Part shown: positions 1,424-10,008 of the stretch, piece after piece
Layout of the letters: each line of letters starts with the position of its first letter
Numbering within the stretch: position 1 is the stretch's first letter
DNA from: Alphaproteobacteria bacterium
GTDB taxonomy: Bacteria > Pseudomonadota > Alphaproteobacteria > Micavibrionales > Micavibrionaceae
DNA: 64,000 nucleotides
Assembly: GCA_052387095.1 (NCBI GenBank)
Contig: JBQTJN010000044.1
Location: forward strand, 310-64,309
Direction of reading: 5' to 3'
Notes under the pieces: generated by a model
What the model was told of the DNA's origin: nothing
The model's input: the letters and a program-made list of their open reading frames with translations, nothing else
Database searches by the model: none
Position numbers and translations under genes: made by a program

Positions 1424-3245
<1,822 letters not shown>

Positions 3246-3249
3246 CCTC

Positions 3250-3331
3250 GTCATTGCGAGGAGGCCGAAGGCGGACGCGGCAATCCAGAAAAGACTGGAT
3301 CGCCGGGCTCACGTTGTTCGCTCGCGATGAC
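3250..3331. repeat. Family-1 palindromic element (GTCATTGCGAG...GCAATCCAG / CTGGATCGC...CGCTCGCGATGAC)
   Basis: A long imperfect inverted repeat beginning 5 nt downstream of the last base of the eno stop codon. Its termini are shared with the copies at 4825, 22540 and 41491. Confidence 0.8.
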
Positions 3332-3410: not shown

Positions 3411-3740
3411 GTGATTCACTCAATACTTATGCACAGGTTCTTCCCGCAAAACCATTTCATACGCCAGAATATCGTCGCACTCGTGGCGGTAGCCGTCTGT
3501 TTTTACTTTGTTTACCACACGTTTCAGGGGAACCGCAGCCTGGCCCGCCTTTTAAATCAGAATAATGAAATTGCTACAATGTCGCTAAAATACGACACAA
3601 AAAAGGCTGAACGGATTGCGCTGGAAAAAAAAGTAGTTATGATGCGTCCCGGATCTTTGGACAGGGATCTTCTCGAAGAGCGGGCCAAGGCGGTTCTGGG
3701 TTACAAAAATAAAGACGAATTCGTCGTCCTCCCCGAATAG
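3411..3740 (+). CDS. ftsB: Septum formation initiator family protein (FtsB/DivIC-like)
   Basis: Small protein with one TM segment followed by a coiled-coil (LARLLNQNNEIATM...KKAERIALEKK) and a RDLLEERAK tail. It sits between eno and pdhA, as is usual in alphaproteobacteria. The start is GTG 3411 or ATG 3429. Confidence 0.75.
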   Translation: MIHSILMHRFFPQNHFIRQNIVALVAVAVCFYFVYHTFQGNRSLARLLNQNNEIATMSLKYDTKKAERIALEKKVVMMRPGSLDRDLLEERAKAVLGYKNKDEFVVLPE

Positions 3741-3791
3741 CAGGCTCCCCAATGTTCAAAGAATAGTGTTTCAACCGGAGCATCTTTTACC

Positions 3792-4811
3792 GTGGCGACT
3801 GCAAAACCAAAAAAGAAAACCAGTAATAAAAATATTTCAAACGTTTCGCCGGATCCGTCCGCGGAAGAGATGAAAAAACTCTACCGCGAAATGCTGCTCA
3901 TCCGCCGTTTCGAGGAAAAGGCCGGCCAGCTTTACGGCATGGGGCTGATCGGCGGCTTCTGCCATCTTTATATCGGCCAGGAAGCTGTCGTGACCGGCAT
4001 CAATTCCGTACAGGAAAAGAAAGACTCCGTCGTTACGTCTTATCGCGATCACGCTCACATGCTGGCTTGCGGCATGGATGCGCGCGGCATCATGGCCGAG
4101 CTGACGGGACGCCAAACCGGCTATTCGCGCGGCAAGGGCGGCTCCATGCATATGTTCAGCCGCGAACAGAATTTCTACGGCGGCCATGGCATTGTCGGTG
4201 CCAGCACTTCAATTGGCACCGGTCTCGGTTTTGCGCACAAATACCGCGCCGACGGCGGCGTAGCGATGGCCTATATGGGTGACGGCGCCGCCAATCAGGG
4301 GCAGGTCGCGGAATGCTACAACATGGCGGCGCTGTGGGATCTTCCCGTGCTTTTTGTCATTGAAAATAACCAGTACGGCATGGGCACCAGCGTCCAGCGC
4401 GCCGCCGCCGGCCAGCTTTATAAACGCGGCGAAGGCTACAGCATCCCCGGCGAGCAGGTCGACGGCATGGATGTGTTCGCCGTGCAGGCCGCCGCGCGCC
4501 AGGCGCTCGATTATATCCGCAGCGGCAACGGCCCCTATGTGCTCGAGGTCATGACATACCGTTACCGCGGCCATTCCATGTCGGATCCCGCGAAATACCG
4601 CACGAAAGAGGAAGTCGCCGGTTACAAGGACAACCGCGATCCTATCACGTCGCTGCTGGCGAAAATGCAGAAGGCCGGGGTGAAGGAAGATGACATTAAA
4701 AAAATCGACAGTGAAATTAAAAACATCGTCAATGACGCCGCCGAATTTGCACAAGAATCGCCCGAACTCCCCGCGGATGATCTCTGGACCGATGTATTGG
4801 TGGAAATATGA
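3792..4811 (+). CDS. pdhA: Pyruvate dehydrogenase E1 component, alpha subunit
   Basis: LLIRRFEEKAGQLYGMGLIGGFCHLYIGQEA, YRDHAH, GKGGSMHMF and YRYRGHSMSDP are canonical E1-alpha. GTG start. Confidence 0.95.
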   Translation: MATAKPKKKTSNKNISNVSPDPSAEEMKKLYREMLLIRRFEEKAGQLYGMGLIGGFCHLYIGQEAVVTGINSVQEKKDSVVTSYRDHAHMLACGMDARGIMAELTGRQTGYSRGKGGSMHMFSREQNFYGGHGIVGASTSIGTGLGFAHKYRADGGVAMAYMGDGAANQGQVAECYNMAALWDLPVLFVIENNQYGMGTSVQRAAAGQLYKRGEGYSIPGEQVDGMDVFAVQAAARQALDYIRSGNGPYVLEVMTYRYRGHSMSDPAKYRTKEEVAGYKDNRDPITSLLAKMQKAGVKEDDIKKIDSEIKNIVNDAAEFAQESPELPADDLWTDVLVEI

Positions 4812-4824
4812 GATCTCTAATGGC

Positions 4825-4918
4825 GTCATTGCGAGCGAACGTTGAGAGCTAAGCAATCCAGGTGTGTGCTTTTAAGGAGACTCCTGGATTGCCGCGTCGC
4901 TTCGCTCTTCGCAATGAC
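4825..4918. repeat. Family-1 palindromic element between pdhA and pdhB
   Basis: GTCATTGCGAGCGAAC...AAGCAATCCAGG-loop-CCTGGATTGCCGCG...CTCTTCGCAATGAC. It starts 14 nt after the pdhA stop and ends 25 nt before the pdhB ATG. Confidence 0.85.
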
Positions 4919-4942
4919 GAAACTATGATTTGAGAGAAAAGA

Positions 4943-6391
4943 ATGCCGATTAAAATCCTGATGCCCGCGCTATCGCCGACCCTGACCGAGGGCACGCTCG
5001 CGAAGTGGCTGAAGAAGGAAGGCGATGCCGTGAAGGCAGGTGACGTCATCGCCGAGATCGAAACCGACAAGGCAACGATGGAGGTCGAAGCCGTCGATGA
5101 AGGTATTCTCGGGAAGATCCTCGTGCCCGAAGGCACGGAGCATGTTGCCGTCAATGCGGTGATCGCGGTGCTGGTGGAGGAAGGTGAAACTGTACCGGAG
5201 GATTCGTTTACCGACATTCCTTGTATTCCAAATCAAAACCCCTCACCCCAACCCTCTCCCGTCGGGAGAGGGAGGGACCCGCGCGAAGCGGGGGAGGGTG
5301 AGGGGCAAGCCTTTCAACCCGAAGGCCGCGTCATCGAAAACCGCGATATTTTATATGCGCAAGGGCACGTGCTTGAGCCGCCGCCGTTCGATGAATCCTC
5401 TTTCACCGAAATGAAAACCCAGACCGTGCGCGAAGCCTTGCGCGACGCCATGGCCGAAGAAATGCGCCGCGATAAGGATGTGTTCCTGCTCGGTGAGGAA
5501 GTCGCCGAATACCAGGGCGCGTATAAAGTATCGCAAGGCCTGCTGGACGAATTCGGTCCCAGGCGCATCATCGATACACCGATCACGGAACATGGTTTCA
5601 CCGGCATGGCTGTCGGCGCCGCAATGACGGGTCTCAAACCCATCGTCGAGTTCATGACCTGGAATTTCGGGATGCAGGCGATCGATCACATTATAAACTC
5701 CGCTGCCAAGACCTTATATATGGCGGGCGGCAAACTGGGCTGCCCGATTGTTTTCCGCGGGCCCAACGGCGCGGCCAGCCGCGTCGGCGCTCAGCACTCG
5801 CAGGATTATGCGAGCTGGTACGGTCACATTCCCGGCCTGAAAGTCGTCGCGCCATGGTCCGGCGCCGATGCCAAGGGCCTGCTCAAGGCCGCGATCCGCG
5901 ATCCGAACCCGGTTGTCGTGCTGGAAAATGAAATGATTTACGGCCAGAGTTTTGAAGTGCCGACGGATGAGGAATTCGTCATTCCCATTGGCCGCGCGAA
6001 AATCGAGCGCGCCGGAAATGATGTCACGATCGTGGCTTATTCCATTATGGTCGGCAAGGCGCTCGAAGCAGCCAAGCAACTCGCGGAGGAGGGGATCGAC
6101 GCCGAGGTGATTAACCTTCGCACCATCCGCCCGCTCGACCGGTATACAATTTTGGAAAGCGTAAGAAAAACCAACCGCATTGTCAGTGTCGAGGAAAGCT
6201 GGCCGTTCGCCGGTATCGGCTCGGAAATCGCCGCGCTCTGCATGGAGCATGCGTTCGATGATCTGGATGCGCCGGTGGTGCGCGTCTGCGCCGCCGATGT
6301 GCCGCTGCCTTATGCGGCAGGTCTCGAAGCGCTGGCCTCACCGCAGCCTCAACATATTATCGAGGCTGCGAGAAAGGTGTGTTACCGGTGA
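4943..6391 (+). CDS. pdhB: Pyruvate dehydrogenase E1 component, beta subunit, with N-terminal lipoyl domain
   Basis: The N-terminus ([14 protein letters not shown]) is a lipoyl-attachment domain, followed by a linker and then the E1-beta core ([35 protein letters not shown]). Confidence 0.95.
5239..5305. repeat. Family-2 palindromic element (CCCCTCACCC...GGGAGAGGG...GGGTGAGGGG) inserted in frame in the pdhB linker
   Basis: Has terminal inverted repeats plus an internal CTCTCCC/GGGAGAG hairpin. It is read through as [22 protein letters not shown] without a stop. A reverse-orientation copy lies in pdhC. Confidence 0.8.
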
Positions 6392-6399
6392 AAATCTTT

Positions 6400-6648
6400 T
6401 TAAGGGCTAGCGAAATAACGTTGGGCGTGTGCAACGGCTTCAATACCGCCAAGTACTTGTATAATTTTGCCAGAGATCTCTGGGGAAACTTGAGCTCCGT
6501 TTACAAGAAAATCCCTAACCAAATCTATCTCTACACCGGCACGACCGGAAATTTTTGCAACACTAAAAGCTCCGCCAGGTGCTATTTGACTATTTTGGCC
6601 GCCAAGTTGAGGGGTAAAATTTGTTTTCAAGAAAGAATCTTTGCTCAT
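6400..6648 (-). CDS. Hypothetical small protein (82 aa), antisense to the pdh gene direction
   Basis: ATG at 6648 (MSKDSFLKTNFTPQLGGQNS...) with a GGGGGT SD-like run about 8 nt upstream. It lies in an AT-rich 388-nt gap between pdhB and pdhC. I recognise no family. Confidence 0.35.
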   Translation of the reverse strand: MSKDSFLKTNFTPQLGGQNSQIAPGGAFSVAKISGRAGVEIDLVRDFLVNGAQVSPEISGKIIQVLGGIEAVAHAQRYFASP

Positions 6649-6779
6649 TACTGTTACCCCCAAAAATTAAGGTTATTTATAACAATTTGTGCGTTTATAA
6701 ACCAAATGATCTGGAAAGTCAAAAGAAAAGCATCCTTAAACCCTAATTATACGCAACTTTCTTATCAACGTGAGGTTGT

Positions 6780-8063
6780 ATGCCGATAAATATTACCATG
6801 CCGGCTTTATCGCCCACCATGACCGACGGCACGCTCGCGAAGTGGCTGAAGAAGGAAGGCGACGCTGTGAAGGCCGGCGATGTCATCGCCGAGATCGAAA
6901 CCGACAAGGCGACCATGGAGGTCGAAGCGGTTGACGAAGGCATTCTCGGAAAAATCCTGGTGCCCGAAGGTACGGAACATGTCGCCGTCAATGCCGTCAT
7001 CGCGATCCTGCTGGAAGAAGGGGAAGATAAGAGCGCGTTGGTTGCATCACCAAGTAAAATACAAAAGAAAGAGGAATCAAAACCGTCGGTTGTTCTGCCT
7101 CCCTCACCCTCCCGCGCTGCGCGCGGGTCCCACCCTCTCCCCACGGGAGAGGGTGATCGAGCGCAAGCGAGATCGGGTGAGGGGCAACGCATTTTCGCTT
7201 CCCCCCTTGCCAAACGCCTGGCAAGAGAACGCGGCATTGATCTTTTCTCCGTACGCGGCTCCGGCCCGCGCGGGCGCATTATCCGGGATGATATCCTGAA
7301 TGCCGGCAGTGGCCCCGGCGCCGCGCCTGCACGCCCCACCGGACCGGATGCAAAAAAACTCGCCGACCAGTTAGGCATGAAATACAAGGAAATTCCTAAC
7401 AATGCGATCCGCAAGATTGTCGCCGCGCGCCTGCAGGAATCGAAGCAACTCGTGCCGCATTTCTACCTGACCATTGATTGCGTCATCGACAATCTTCTGG
7501 CTTCCCGCAAGGACCTCAACGAGAAGGGGGAGGGCGCCTACAAACTCTCAGTCAATGATTTCGTCATCAAGGCCGCCGCCATGGCGCTGAAATCTTACCC
7601 GGCCGCCAATGTCGCCTGGACCGACGCCGCCATTCTCCAGTATGAAAGTGCGGATATCTCCGTCGCTGTCGCCACGCCGAACGGCCTGATGACGCCGATC
7701 GTCAAGGCCGCCGAAACCAAGGGTCTTAAACAAATCTCAGAAGAGGTGAAAGATCTCGCCAGACGCGCGCGCGATAGTAAGCTTAAGCCCGAGGAATTCC
7801 AGGGCGGCACCTTCACCATTTCCAATCTCGGCATGTACGGCATTAAGGATTTCGGTGCCATCATCAACCCGCCGCAGGCCTGCATCCTCGCCGTCGGCGG
7901 AGGGGTTGAACAGCCGGTCGTCGAAAATGGCGAAATCGTGATCCGCACTATCATGTCCTGCACGCTTTCCGTCGATCACCGCGCCGTCGATGGCGCGGTC
8001 GGCGCAGAATATCTGCAGACCTTCAAGAAATATTTGGAGAACCCCGTGAGCATCCTGCTATGA
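6780..8063 (+). CDS. pdhC: Pyruvate dehydrogenase E2 component (dihydrolipoamide acetyltransferase)
   Basis: Contains a lipoyl domain, an E3-binding domain ([16 protein letters not shown]) and a catalytic domain with the [11 protein letters not shown] motif. Confidence 0.95.
7100..7184. repeat. Family-2 palindromic element, reverse orientation, in frame in the pdhC linker
   Basis: CCCTCACCCTCCCGCGCTGCGCGCGGGTCCCACCCTCTCCCCACGGGAGAGGG...GGGTGAGGGG matches the reverse complement of 5239-5305, with about 20 extra nt. It is translated as [30 protein letters not shown]. Confidence 0.8.
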
Positions 8064-8617
8064 CGATTGCCTTCCGCCTGCCAATTGTAGGTGTCATGGG
8101 TTCGCACGAACACACGTGGGAAGAATTATCCGCGCCCGTGGGCCGCATGATCGCCCGCAAAGGCTGGCACCTGCTGACCGGCGGCGGGGGCGGTGTCATG
8201 GTCGCAGTCGCAAAGGCTTTCATGGCGGAAAAAAAACGCAAAGGTCTCAGCATCGGCATCATTCCGACCTTCGAGAAAGAAGGGCAGTTTTTGCGCCGCT
8301 CCGAATATCCCAATCCTTACATTGAAATCCCAGTCATAACGCCGCTCGATATTCGCGTTCTCAGCGACGCCATGCCCTATAGCCGCAATCATGTGAATGT
8401 CATGACCAGTGACGTTGTAATTATCCTGCCCGGTTCGCACGGCACGCAAAACGAAGCGTCGCTGTCCCTCATGCTGAATAAACCGCATATTCTCTATGGT
8501 CCGCCGGAAGCCTTCGCGGGATTTCCGGAAGGCGGCAAGCGCGTTCATGATTTTTGGGCGGTCGAGCATTTTGTTGAAGACGCGCTCACAGCTTTCTCAG
8601 GGAGTTACAGCATATGA
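8060..8617 (+). CDS. LOG/TIGR00725-like Rossmann-fold (SLOG) protein
   Basis: [16 protein letters not shown] and [14 protein letters not shown] resemble the GGGxGxM and PGGxGTxxE motifs of the LOG/TIGR00725 family. The start overlaps the pdhC stop (ATGA) and the stop overlaps the lpdA start (ATGA). Confidence 0.75.
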
Positions 8618-10008
8618 AATCATTCGATCTTATCGTTATCGGTGGCGGCCCCGGCGGTTATGTCGCTGCCATCCGCGCCAGCCAGCTCGGCATGAAAGTG
8701 GCGCTGGTCGAGGCCGCTCATCTCGGCGGCATCTGCCTCAATTGGGGCTGCATCCCGACCAAGGCGCTGTTGCGCTCGGCGGAAATTTATACGCTGATCA
8801 AGCACGCCGATCAATTCGGCCTCAAGGTCGGCAGCGTCGAGATTGATTTCAAAAAGATTATCGAACGCTCACGCGGTGTCGCGGGGCAGCTCTCCAAGGG
8901 CATCGGCCACCTGATGAAAAAAAACAAGGTCACGGTTTTTGACGGCTGGGGCAAATTGCAGGGTAAAGGCAAAATTGCGGTTGAAAAAGACGGCAAGAAA
9001 ATCGAGGACCTCGAAGCAAAACATATCATTATCGCTACCGGTGCCCGCGCCCGCACATTGCCCGGCCTGGAACCGGACGGCAAGCTGATCTGGACTTATA
9101 AAGAGGCCATGGTGCCGGATGAATTGCCGAAATCGGTTCTCGTTGTCGGCTCCGGTGCTATCGGTATCGAATTCGCCAGCTTTTATAACGCGCTCGGCGC
9201 GGCTGTCACGGTTGTCGAGATCATGGATCGTGTGCTGCCCGTCGAGGACGAAGAAATTTCTAAGTTCGCGCAGAAAGCCTTTGAAAAGCGGGGCATGAAA
9301 ATCATCACCGGCGCCAAGGTGACAAAACTCGATAAATCCAAAACCAGCGTCAAAGCCACGATTGAAATCGGCGCGAAGAAAGCAGAACAAACCTTCGACC
9401 GCGTCATCATGGCGGTCGGCATTGTCGGCAACACGGAAAATATGGGGCTCGAAAACACCAAAGTCAAAGTGGATCGCGGCCAGATCGTCACCAATGAATG
9501 GCTGGTGACGGGTGAGCCAGGCGTTTATGCCATCGGCGACGTCGCGGGCGCGCCATGGCTCGCGCACAAGGCCAGTCATGAAGGCGTTATCTGCGTCGAG
9601 AAAATCGCCGGTGTGAAAGACGTTCATCCTATGAAGAAATCCAACATCCCGGGCTGCACTTACTGCACGCCGCAGGTCGCCAGCGTCGGCCTCACTGAAA
9701 AAGCTGCGAAGGAAAAAGGCCTTAAGGTAAAAGTCGGCCGCTTCCCGTTCATCGGCAACGGCAAGGCGATTGCGCTCGGCGAACCCGAAGGCCTCGTCAA
9801 AACCATTTTTGATGAAAAAACCGGCGAGCTCCTTGGCGCGCATATGATCGGCGCCGAAGTCACGGAACTGATCCAGGGTTACGTTATTGCCAGGACGCTG
9901 GAAACAACAGAAGCTGAACTCATGCACACCATCTTCGCCCACCCGACCTTAAGCGAAATGATGCATGAGAGCGTGCTGGATGCGTACGGGAAAGTTATTC
10001 ATTTTTAG
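8614..10008 (+). CDS. lpdA: Dihydrolipoyl dehydrogenase (E3)
   Basis: VIGGGPGGYVAAIRA (FAD site), GGICLNWGCIPTKALL (redox disulfide) and a C-terminal HAHPTLSE motif. Confidence 0.96.
   Translation: MKSFDLIVIGGGPGGYVAAIRASQLGMKVALVEAAHLGGICLNWGCIPTKALLRSAEIYTLIKHADQFGLKVGSVEIDFKKIIERSRGVAGQLSKGIGHLMKKNKVTVFDGWGKLQGKGKIAVEKDGKKIEDLEAKHIIIATGARARTLPGLEPDGKLIWTYKEAMVPDELPKSVLVVGSGAIGIEFASFYNALGAAVTVVEIMDRVLPVEDEEISKFAQKAFEKRGMKIITGAKVTKLDKSKTSVKATIEIGAKKAEQTFDRVIMAVGIVGNTENMGLENTKVKVDRGQIVTNEWLVTGEPGVYAIGDVAGAPWLAHKASHEGVICVEKIAGVKDVHPMKKSNIPGCTYCTPQVASVGLTEKAAKEKGLKVKVGRFPFIGNGKAIALGEPEGLVKTIFDEKTGELLGAHMIGAEVTELIQGYVIARTLETTEAELMHTIFAHPTLSEMMHESVLDAYGKVIHF

Follow-up and report, generated by a model that had tools for sequence, protein, structure and literature searches.

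The linker of PdhC, the dihydrolipoamide acetyltransferase (E2) encoded in the window (the whole stretch of 64,000 nucleotides that was analysed), contains a repeat of 84 nt at 7101-7184 (+), which is read in frame without a stop and encodes residues 108-135. On sequence grounds this element is not lineage-specific; its core is the known E. coli BoxC / PIT / TM_ECO repeat. It is probably a selfish or neutral member of the BoxC family in a composite form, tolerated in the disordered and length-tolerant E2 linker. In-frame settling in protein linkers is a general, little-described habit of this family: its members are also translated in the swinging-arm linkers of pyruvate dehydrogenase and in at least 8 unrelated proteins from several phyla. 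The features discussed below are the following.

4943-6391 (+): pdhB, encoding E1 beta with a lipoyl domain at its N terminus (residues 5-77) and a transketolase-like domain starting at residue 160 (Pfam); carries the sister copy
5240-5305 (-): sister copy in the pdhB linker, PdhB residues 100-121, from alignment and in-frame translation
6780-8063 (+): pdhC (E2), host gene, with the element read in frame 1
6789-7010 (+): PdhC lipoyl domain, residues 4-77 (Pfam)
7101-7184 (+): whole composite repeat in pdhC, encoding PdhC residues 108-135 (28 residues), from alignment, translation and fold
7101-7109 (+): block 1, CCCTCACCC, outer left arm and partner of block 4, an exact match and part of the outer stem of the MFE fold
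7110-7132 (+): hairpin B module, stem CCCGCGC 7111-7117 / GCGCGGG 7121-7127, from the fold
7133-7153 (+): hairpin A, CCCTCTCCC-CAC-GGGAGAGGG, the conserved core, corresponding to the second and third block of the BoxC/TM motif
7155-7174 (+): hairpin C, GATCGAGCGCAAGCGAGATC, replacing the second loop, which has 3 nt in the classical motif
7175-7184 (+): block 4, GGGTGAGGGG, outer right arm, containing a frame-closing TGA
7191-7298 (+): PdhC E3-binding domain, residues 138-173 (Pfam)
PdhC residues 201-427: catalytic domain (Pfam)

According to the Pfam limits the element lies between the lipoyl and E3-binding domains of PdhC, i.e. in the flexible swinging-arm linker, as the sequence-only reading had already stated together with the stop-free translation. 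AlphaFold assigns pLDDT values of 32-36 and no secondary structure to residues 88-135, and the encoded peptide of 28 residues, which is rich in Pro, Ser, Gly and Arg, is predicted to be disordered. At the nucleotide level, CCCTCACCC, hairpin B, CCCTCTCCC-loop-GGGAGAGGG, hairpin C and GGGTGAGGG follow each other as a nested palindrome with a predicted fold of -60.4 kcal/mol (z -6.4 vs shuffles); the respective values for the pdhB copy are -49.7 kcal/mol and z -4.8. Four G3 tracts are located on the sense strand of the pdhC copy. The extra palindromic segment of about 20 nt that had been noted earlier is indeed present as hairpin C, an imperfect palindrome with GATC/GATC and GC/GC pairs, two G.A mismatches and a GCAA loop. 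Hairpin B represents a spacer with variable sequence and conserved structure, as 24 of 29 distinct family spacers with very different sequences fold better than shuffles (z < -1.5).

In 30 years, BoxC/PIT/TM repeats have, to our knowledge, been assigned neither a function nor a means of spread, nor has a role in proteins been reported. Literature on the BoxC / PIT / TM_ECO 'intrastrand triplex motif' reportedly includes work by Bergler in 1992 and by Hoyne and Maher in 2000. Such repeats have been described in E. coli and other bacteria (Holder et al. 2015, PMC4666352) with the published pattern 5'-CCCTCNCCC N3-6 GGGNGAGGG N3 GGGNGAGGG (PMC4666352). In the element found here, the core CCCTCNCCC-loop-GGGNGAGGG-loop-GGGTGAGGG is part of a nested palindrome and is accompanied by two extra variable hairpins. 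Both copies contain the three 9-nt blocks in the published order, on the plus strand in pdhC (CCCTCTCCC from 7133, GGGAGAGGG from 7145, GGGTGAGGG from 7175) and on the minus strand in pdhB, and the first loop falls into the range of 3-6 nt in both cases (CAC in pdhC, GTC/GAC in pdhB). The second loop has exactly 3 nt in pdhB (TTG, minus strand), so that this copy, CCCTCTCCC-GAC-GGGAGAGGG-TTG-GGGTGAGGG-G on the minus strand, exactly fits the published TM_ECO pattern. In pdhC this loop is a 21-nt stretch with hairpin C, which makes the pdhC copy a variant rather than a strict match to the pattern.

Matches to the element were obtained by blastn in 4378 out of 5426 E. coli genomes, with 82-86% identity over about 45 nt and in intergenic positions, e.g. 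between phnK and phnL. Azospirillum replicons contained copies of 85-90% identity that included hairpin B, and a scan with one genome per species detected at least 120 loci over more than 12 phyla. In L130, a full three-hairpin unit lies outside coding sequence and is interrupted by a stop, and hairpin A together with hairpin C occurred in an intergenic position in L131. The metagenome scan for hairpins A and C resulted in these two matches from an incomplete collection, in which known orthologous copies such as that of L001 were not returned. As these cases show, hairpin C is a regular module of a sub-family and not a local addition. A scan of positions 3500-9000 against Rfam, with E up to 1, assigned no family.

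The sequence-only reading proposed that the first 55 nt or so of the pdhC segment match the pdhB element in inverted orientation. This was confirmed when 7100-7184 (+) was aligned locally to the reverse complement of 5239-5306, with 50 of 54 bases identical and a score of 46, compared to a mean of 9.9 (sd 1.8, maximum 20) for 2000 dinucleotide shuffles; alignment of the two copies in the same orientation reached a score of only 26. Moreover, the asymmetric hairpin B precedes the central hairpin in pdhC (5' side) and follows it in pdhB (3' side), and hence the two copies are mutually inverted. Hairpin C is present in pdhC and absent from the pdhB copy. In the 64-kb window, exact matches to the blocks CCCTCACCC/GGGTGAGGG and to the hairpin CCCTCTCCC-N3-GGGAGAGGG are restricted to two sites, those in pdhB and pdhC. 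The window has 10 perfect hairpins with stems of 8 bp or more, and only those at these two sites are of the homopyrimidine/homopurine type. Less easily reconciled with a dispersed multi-copy family in the source genome is that the 64 kb yielded no more than these two copies, and that about 125 kb of Micavibrio-like DNA had none outside the pdh linkers. Random insertion alone does not explain that all copies in this DNA are situated in pdh linkers.

The two copies differ in their distribution among relatives. The pdhC copy including hairpin C is common to L001, L002, L004 and L005 and is absent in L003 and in the proteins P0007, P0008 and P0011. In contrast, the pdhB copy is missing in L001, L003 and L006, i.e. 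in three out of four relatives in which pdhB was read. In the fourth, L004, the same codon position of the pdhB linker is occupied by a different copy in opposite orientation, and the two copies of L004 differ in the sequences of hairpins B and C. Empty sites are provided by pdhC of L003 and by pdhB of L001, L003 and L006, and L006 (Micavibrio aeruginosavorus) has two partial copies in pdhC. The comparison with pdhC orthologues, which had been suggested as a check, revealed unrelated Ala/Pro-rich sequence at the linker site of repeat-free relatives and not a conserved linker. In view of these distributions and of the unrelated flanks of the two window copies, the earlier idea of one element that was inserted twice, independently, in frame and in both orientations holds, and the copies in pdhB and pdhC are, as far as sequence comparison can tell, independent insertions of different age.

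Among 120 PdhC homologues, the peptide encoded by hairpin A (PSPxGRG or PLPxGEG) occurs in 22, patchily on the tree and at no fixed position in the linker, and in at least 11 the same linker harbors another, unrelated repeat, likewise in frame. Judging from this sample, the PSP-GRG and PLP-GEG frames would be expected to predominate over LSxxER among in-frame copies. The neighbor-joining pattern of inserts over these 120 homologues is patchy and too weak to separate a single gain from repeated gain. Stretches such as PSPxGRG, PLPxGEG and GEG in linkers are to be regarded as footprints of the BoxC repeat and not as conserved protein motifs. In Micavibrio-like alphaproteobacteria, the linkers of E2 and E1-beta may serve as a sink in which small palindromic repeats from at least two families accumulate. 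Since such a linker tolerates changes in length and sequence, an insertion would be neutral or nearly neutral for the enzyme and could persist.

Two explanations that do without a pair of insertions were considered. E2 linkers are Pro/Ala-rich and consequently encoded by C/G-rich, repetitive DNA, and the segment might therefore be ordinary low-complexity Pro/Gly-rich linker DNA that is self-complementary by chance. The probability of this is close to nil: the identity to the inverted pdhB copy far exceeds the shuffles, the 85-nt unit also exists outside any gene, identical blocks occur in E. coli and many phyla, and relatives have unrelated sequence at the site. The alignment score and the non-coding copies refute it. 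A single insertion that was copied by gene conversion of the lipoyl segment, and the interior of which was then flipped via the terminal inverted blocks, is very improbable as well. Conversion between pdhB and pdhC does occur, as judged from the 85% identity of their first 246 nt in the window vs 70-78% between the paralogues in relatives, and the outer blocks are inverted repeats which could mediate an inversion. However, this similarity stops at the EEGE motif, 17-25 codons ahead of the elements, beyond which the flanks are unrelated. Furthermore, hairpin C is lacking in pdhB, the copies of L004 differ in hairpins B and C, and the pdhC copy is shared by L001, L004 and L005, of which L001 has the pdhC copy only, along with an intact unrelated pdhB linker. 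This scenario was rejected on the basis of flanks and distribution.

The conservation of the stems bears on the question whether the element is more than tolerated. Hairpin A, hairpin C and block 4 share 93-94% DNA identity with L001 and L005, and third positions of identical codons match in 15 out of 16 cases, whereas the remaining pdhC shows 70-72% DNA identity and 49-51% matching third positions. Differences between the pdhC elements of relatives lie in the loops; the stems of hairpin A are identical in L001, L004 and L005, and its loop varies. Stem sequence is, by this comparison, held at the nucleotide level and not by the protein. Such synonymous-site conservation within an ORF provides a clean handle on what keeps BoxC repeats uniform. 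The upkeep of the stems may be due to a force that acts on the whole family (structure recognition, or sequence supplied by other copies through gene conversion or re-insertion), or alternatively to a hot spot that has recently received independent insertions. Strong synonymous conservation could equally indicate a structural function of the mRNA or DNA, in which case 'merely tolerated' would be too weak a description. The element would then have been co-opted to slow down the ribosome or polymerase after emergence of the lipoyl domain and so to aid folding, or to influence RNA processing or stability, with a hairpin, a triplex or a G-quadruplex as candidate structure at the domain boundary. 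We regard this as unlikely, although it is clearly the strongest of the alternatives. In its favor are the stable predicted fold, the constraint on stems alongside variable loops and hairpin B, the four G3 tracts together with triplex formation by the TM_ECO family in vitro (PMC4666352), and the recurrence at domain boundaries in two pdh genes and in two separate lineages (the window and L004). The confinement of all copies in Micavibrio-like DNA to pdh linkers and the copies in linkers of unrelated proteins also fit. On the other hand, L003 and the proteins P0007, P0008 and P0011 from close relatives manage with an ordinary linker, the stems are just as conserved in intergenic copies of distant phyla and hence not in a coding-specific manner, and E. 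coli copies had no promoter, terminator or polymerase-blocking effect in vivo (PMC4666352). The second, unrelated repeat in the same linker of other relatives also is in better agreement with tolerance of a selfish or neutral repeat.

The sequence-only reading further suggested that openness of the element on both strands may be a selected feature. This was not supported. Each copy has 4 out of 6 frames open, compared to means of 4.6 (pdhC) and 5.4 (pdhB) in dinucleotide shuffles, and one frame per strand is shut by the TGA within GGGTGAGGG. Similarly, 156 family members from other genomes showed 4.42 open frames vs 4.97 in shuffles. Selected stop-codon avoidance was therefore rejected, since the observed openness is below that of composition-matched shuffles and results from the G+C-rich composition. 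Selection works on which insertions survive, and not visibly on the element itself.

The insertion in pdhC may be one of many, as the BoxC family also occurs in frame in linkers and loops of unrelated proteins in other phyla. Verified in-frame copies between or inside Pfam domains were found in eight proteins, namely urea carboxylase, MetRS, the terminase large subunit, LigA, a molybdopterin-subunit/cytochrome c fusion, transketolase, YgiQ and PrmC. Long ORFs spanning a copy in the G+C-rich L017, L030, L057, L074, L018 and L037 had no Pfam hit or were antisense-like and were not counted as coding. The insertions provide a concrete route for linker growth and for the fusion of separate subunits.

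The best lead as to how copies may arise are DUF559 endonuclease genes, which in other genomes are flanked by BoxC-like hairpins in inverted orientation. DUF559 is a candidate for the propagating enzyme of BoxC-type repeats, and the association makes this proposal testable. Neither a transposase nor a DUF559 gene was found within the 64-kb window. In E. coli, 3378 of 5426 genomes possess ycjD (DUF559), as compared to more than 5100 with the repeats, which indicates that the repeats persist without ycjD; a strain lacking ycjD had other genes at the locus and no clean empty site. It is conceivable, if rather doubtful, that BoxC/TM hairpins and the flanked DUF559 (Vsr-like) genes constitute a pan-bacterial, REPtron-like selfish system with stems recognized by nuclease or repair functions. 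Its solo hairpin modules, and now and then a complete hairpin-DUF559-hairpin unit as in a betaproteobacterial metG, would repeatedly settle in frame in inter-domain linkers. Such a system would be a general source of new linker sequence and domain fusions, and recognition by a nuclease or by structure-dependent repair would constrain the stems within genes.

Compared with known repeats, the window copies resemble BoxC/TM_ECO in the identity and order of the 9-nt blocks CCCTCNCCC, GGGAGAGGG and GGGTGAGGG, in a first loop of 3 nt, in the occurrence in both orientations, in the lack of an associated transposase, and in presence/absence differences between relatives. They differ by a fourth block, CCCTCACCC, that closes the nested palindrome, by hairpin B and, in pdhC, hairpin C instead of short loops, and by a copy number in the source genome that looks low (two in 64 kb). 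E. coli TM_ECO copies have been reported as 'always intergenic' (PMC4666352), whereas both window copies are inside ORFs, in frame and translated. With REP/REPIN-RAYT systems they have in common short G+C-rich hairpins that mostly occur solo, a few of them flanking a single nuclease gene in inverted orientation, a layout that DUF559 shares. However, DUF559 is a Vsr-like PD-(D/E)XK endonuclease and not a tyrosine transposase of the IS200/IS605 type, and its link to the hairpins is known from gene layout in other genomes, with none in the window. ERIC and other MITEs are likewise small inverted-repeat elements that at times are intragenic and add peptide segments; intragenic members carrying ORFs have been reported (Delihas 2007, PMC2759123; Coxiella QMITE, PMC5896051), the former article without mention of BoxC. 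Inverted ends are shared with MITEs in the form of the terminal repeats CCCTCACCC / GGGTGAGGG of 9-10 bp, but the sequence families are others, and no target-site duplication was visible at either copy, with linkers of relatives that align too poorly to define the junctions; an IS with such ends was not encountered either.

Rickettsia palindromic elements (RPEs) are about 100-150 bp long, A+T-rich and, as far as is known, confined to Rickettsia. Their original descriptions are said to be those of Ogata and co-workers from 2000 and 2002. They are palindromic repeats that reside in frame in unrelated protein genes and are read as peptide (reviewed in PMC10969869). The window copies share with them the in-frame insertion into protein genes where the fold tolerates it. 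RPE peptides are predicted to be amphipathic, whereas the window peptide is a Pro/Gly-rich disordered linker, and the BoxC family spans many phyla. The analogy is a functional one only. In this functional sense, the 'protein-coding palindrome' phenomenon of Rickettsia is extended to a pan-bacterial repeat.

The source of the stretch is an uncultured relative of Micavibrio among the Alphaproteobacteria. Its PdhC matches an NCBI MAG protein at 100%, next relatives show at most 77% identity, and among the homologues at 67-68% several bear the name Micavibrio. The pdh locus comprises:

3792-4811, pdhA
4943-6391, pdhB, with an N-terminal lipoyl domain
6780-8063, pdhC
after pdhC, a small LOG-like gene and lpdA

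The 388-nt spacer between pdhB and pdhC (6392-6779) contains a minus-strand ORF of about 80 codons (about 6410-6650). This spacer differs among related pdh loci: the genes overlap in L001, L003 carries a called minus-strand gene of 74 aa and L004 a plus-strand gene of 231 aa. The lipoyl-domain DNA of pdhB (4943-5188) and pdhC (6780-7025) shares 85% identity with long identical runs, compared to 70-78% for the same pair in relatives. This points to a recent gene conversion in this lineage, the tract of which stops before the linkers.

The sequence-only reading had described the pdhC element as an inverted copy of an element in pdhB. Alignment supported this: 7100-7184 matched the reverse-complemented segment 5239-5306 at 50 of 54 positions with a score of 46, against 26 in the same orientation and a mean of 9.9 and a maximum of 20 in 2000 dinucleotide shuffles. 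As also proposed, the element is read in frame; it encodes residues 108-135, which lie after the lipoyl domain (4-77) and ahead of the E3-binding domain (138-173). Its additional 20 nt form a palindrome, although an imperfect one. In the AlphaFold model of PdhC (48 homologues), residues 88-135 lack secondary structure (pLDDT 32-36). Both copies fold into nested structures, at -60.4 kcal/mol (z -6.4 vs shuffles) for pdhC and -49.7 kcal/mol (z -4.8) for pdhB. They are the only two copies, and contain the only homopyrimidine/homopurine hairpins, in the 64-kb window. The pdhC copy is composed of four conserved 9-nt blocks and three hairpins:

7101-7109, block 1, CCCTCACCC
7110-7132, hairpin B, variable sequence
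7133-7153, hairpin A (blocks 2 and 3), CCCTCTCCC-CAC-GGGAGAGGG
7155-7174, hairpin C, GATCGAGCGCAAGCGAGATC
7175-7183, block 4, GGGTGAGGG

The pdhB copy (5240-5305, minus strand) consists of block 1, hairpin A, hairpin B and block 4, an order inverse to that in pdhC, and is devoid of hairpin C. As RNA, hairpin C of pdhC would carry a GCAA tetraloop (GNRA-type), two closing G-C pairs and a tandem G.A/A.G mismatch; in L004 a GUUA loop and a G-U pair replace this version. These features may be due to chance.

Full-text search with the block sequences led to the E. coli BoxC repeat, 5'-CCCTCNCCC N3-6 GGGNGAGGG N3 GGGNGAGGG, rediscovered as PIT element and afterwards named TM_ECO (Holder et al. 2015, PMC4666352). 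Direct searches found intergenic copies in E. coli genomes (82-86% identity) and copies with a hairpin B in Azospirillum replicons (85-90%). Scanning one genome per species with block 1 and hairpin A resulted in at least 120 loci; Pseudomonadota, Chloroflexota, Planctomycetota, Acidobacteriota, Verrucomicrobiota, Cyanobacteria, Myxococcota, Nitrospirota and others were represented among the matches listed. Long spacers between block 1 and hairpin A differ widely in sequence among 29 distinct copies, yet 24 fold as a small hairpin better than shuffles, and hairpin B thus is a structure-conserved, sequence-free module. Hairpin C recurs in non-coding settings, as part of a complete three-hairpin unit interrupted by a stop in locus L130 and together with hairpin A in an intergenic region of L131. 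The additional 20 nt therefore are a regular part of a sub-family. The pdhC feature is real. It represents a variant of an established repeat family in a setting not described so far, namely translated, located in a linker and equipped with extra hairpins. No report of in-frame BoxC/TM copies was found in the literature searched, which does not prove that there is no such report.

The pdhC copy is common to L001, L002, L004 and L005 in the same orientation and frame, including hairpin C, and ends 1-3 codons ahead of the E3-binding domain; L003 and the PdhC proteins P0007, P0008 and P0011 lack it. At the pdhB site, the linker of L001, L003 and L006 is unrelated, and L004 carries a different copy, with three hairpins and in opposite orientation, at the same codon position. 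In a neighbor-joining tree of 120 PdhC homologues, bearers are interleaved with non-bearers. The hairpin-A peptide occurs in 22 of these linkers at differing positions and in two reading frames, and M. aeruginosavorus has two partial copies. The relatives and the tree thus bear out two independent in-frame insertions, of different age, and indicate that pdh linkers receive BoxC-type insertions repeatedly. Either a single old gain or repeated gains at a hot spot would account for the shared pdhC copy.

Stop-codon avoidance, which the initial reading had put forward for testing as a selected feature, is not supported. Four of the 6 frames are open in each copy vs 4.6 to 5.4 in shuffles, a TGA within GGGTGAGGG closing one frame per strand, and for 156 members of the family from other genomes the average is 4.42 vs 4.97 in shuffles. 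In E2 linkers the PSPxGRG and PLPxGEG frames outnumber the LSxxER frame, which fits selection on the surviving peptide.

Conservation of pdhC between the window and L001 or L005 (third positions scored in identical codons)
Outside the element: DNA identity 70-72%, third positions 49-51% match
Hairpin A, hairpin C and block 4: DNA identity 93-94%, third positions 15/16 match

Hairpin B is far more diverged, and differences in the conserved part are located in loops. The protein cannot be the cause of this nucleotide-level conservation; it may result from selection acting on the stems, from homogenisation by other copies or from independent insertions of recent date.

Linkers and loops of unrelated proteins also host copies. 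Randomly retrieved family loci, with Pfam confirmation, yielded at least 8 proteins with in-frame copies among the matches listed (loci outside pdh, besides metG of L023: L009, L049, L075, L088, L113, L119, L019). Copies lie between domains of urea carboxylase, methionyl-tRNA synthetase and a phage-type terminase large subunit, with two between the carboxyltransferase domains of Azospirillum sp. B510 uca (L009, about 2950-3090). Others bridge the halves of a split transketolase or join a molybdopterin subunit to cytochrome c, in both cases usually separate subunits, or reside in loops of LigA, YgiQ and PrmC. This pattern is expected if the repeat lands widely and survives only where a disordered segment is harmless; possibly, the insertion process itself prefers C-rich linker DNA. 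Most likely, the pdhC copy is tolerated selfish DNA whose stems would be maintained at the nucleotide level. A less favoured alternative is that the copy acts in translation or mRNA handling.

The pdhA-pdhB spacer (about 4820-4925) is filled by another palindromic repeat of unrelated sequence, GTCATTGCGAGCGAA...TTCGCAATGAC, which has further cores at 3250 and 41491 (plus strand) and 22623 (minus strand). At least 11 of the 120 PdhC homologues contain this second repeat within their E2 linker, translated in frame e.g. as GLPRRxxxxRND or RHPERSDRNE.

Among the 120 repeat-selected matches listed, six had a DUF559 ORF no more than 420 nt away from a copy, in most cases with inverted copies on either side. 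DUF559 genes with flanking BoxC/TM-like hairpins include:

L023, 2111-2649
L053, 5594-6026
L060, 5106-5570
L131, 8868-9350
L145, 24358-24794
L132 (E. coli K-12), 2705-3261

In L023, metG of a betaproteobacterial MAG, repeat, DUF559 domain and repeat form one in-frame unit (about 2100-2650), DUF559 occupying residues 650-759 of an 892-aa ORF (Pfam) between the anticodon-binding and C-terminal tRNA-binding domains of methionyl-tRNA synthetase. When loci were selected by DUF559 protein similarity alone, 10 of 12 had C/T-rich//G/A-rich hairpins within about 150 nt, their sequence varying by lineage; in 49 kb of plasmid sequence around a Deinococcus DUF559 gene, just two such hairpins occur, at 33 and 10 nt from its ends. 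E. coli ycjD has a BoxC at a distance of 170 nt, and the repeats are also kept in strains without ycjD. This gene (L132 2908-3261, annotated DUF559 domain protein) is accessory (3378 of 5426 complete E. coli genomes); in strains lacking it, homology breaks off about 40 nt ahead of the neighbouring BoxC, and TetR and RND efflux genes are located next to fabI. The 64-kb window contains no DUF559 gene, and no paper connecting DUF559 with BoxC was found in the literature searched.

DUF559 belongs to a Vsr-like PD-(D/E)XK group that includes a homing endonuclease (PMC3424549). The layout of BoxC-like hairpins around a DUF559 gene resembles that of REP elements with RAYT, and DUF559 is a candidate for how the BoxC family may spread, a lead and not a result. 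For BoxC itself, neither a mobile-element link nor promoter or terminator activity was found; in vitro, the strand on its own adopts a stable triplex, and local genomic instability is associated with the repeat (PMC4666352). The minus strand of the pdhB copy fits the BoxC pattern exactly, and the pdhC copy contains the three blocks but differs by hairpin C replacing the 3-nt second loop. The 23 copies of E. coli K-12 are "always located intergenically" (PMC4666352), whereas the pdhC copy is translated in a linker.
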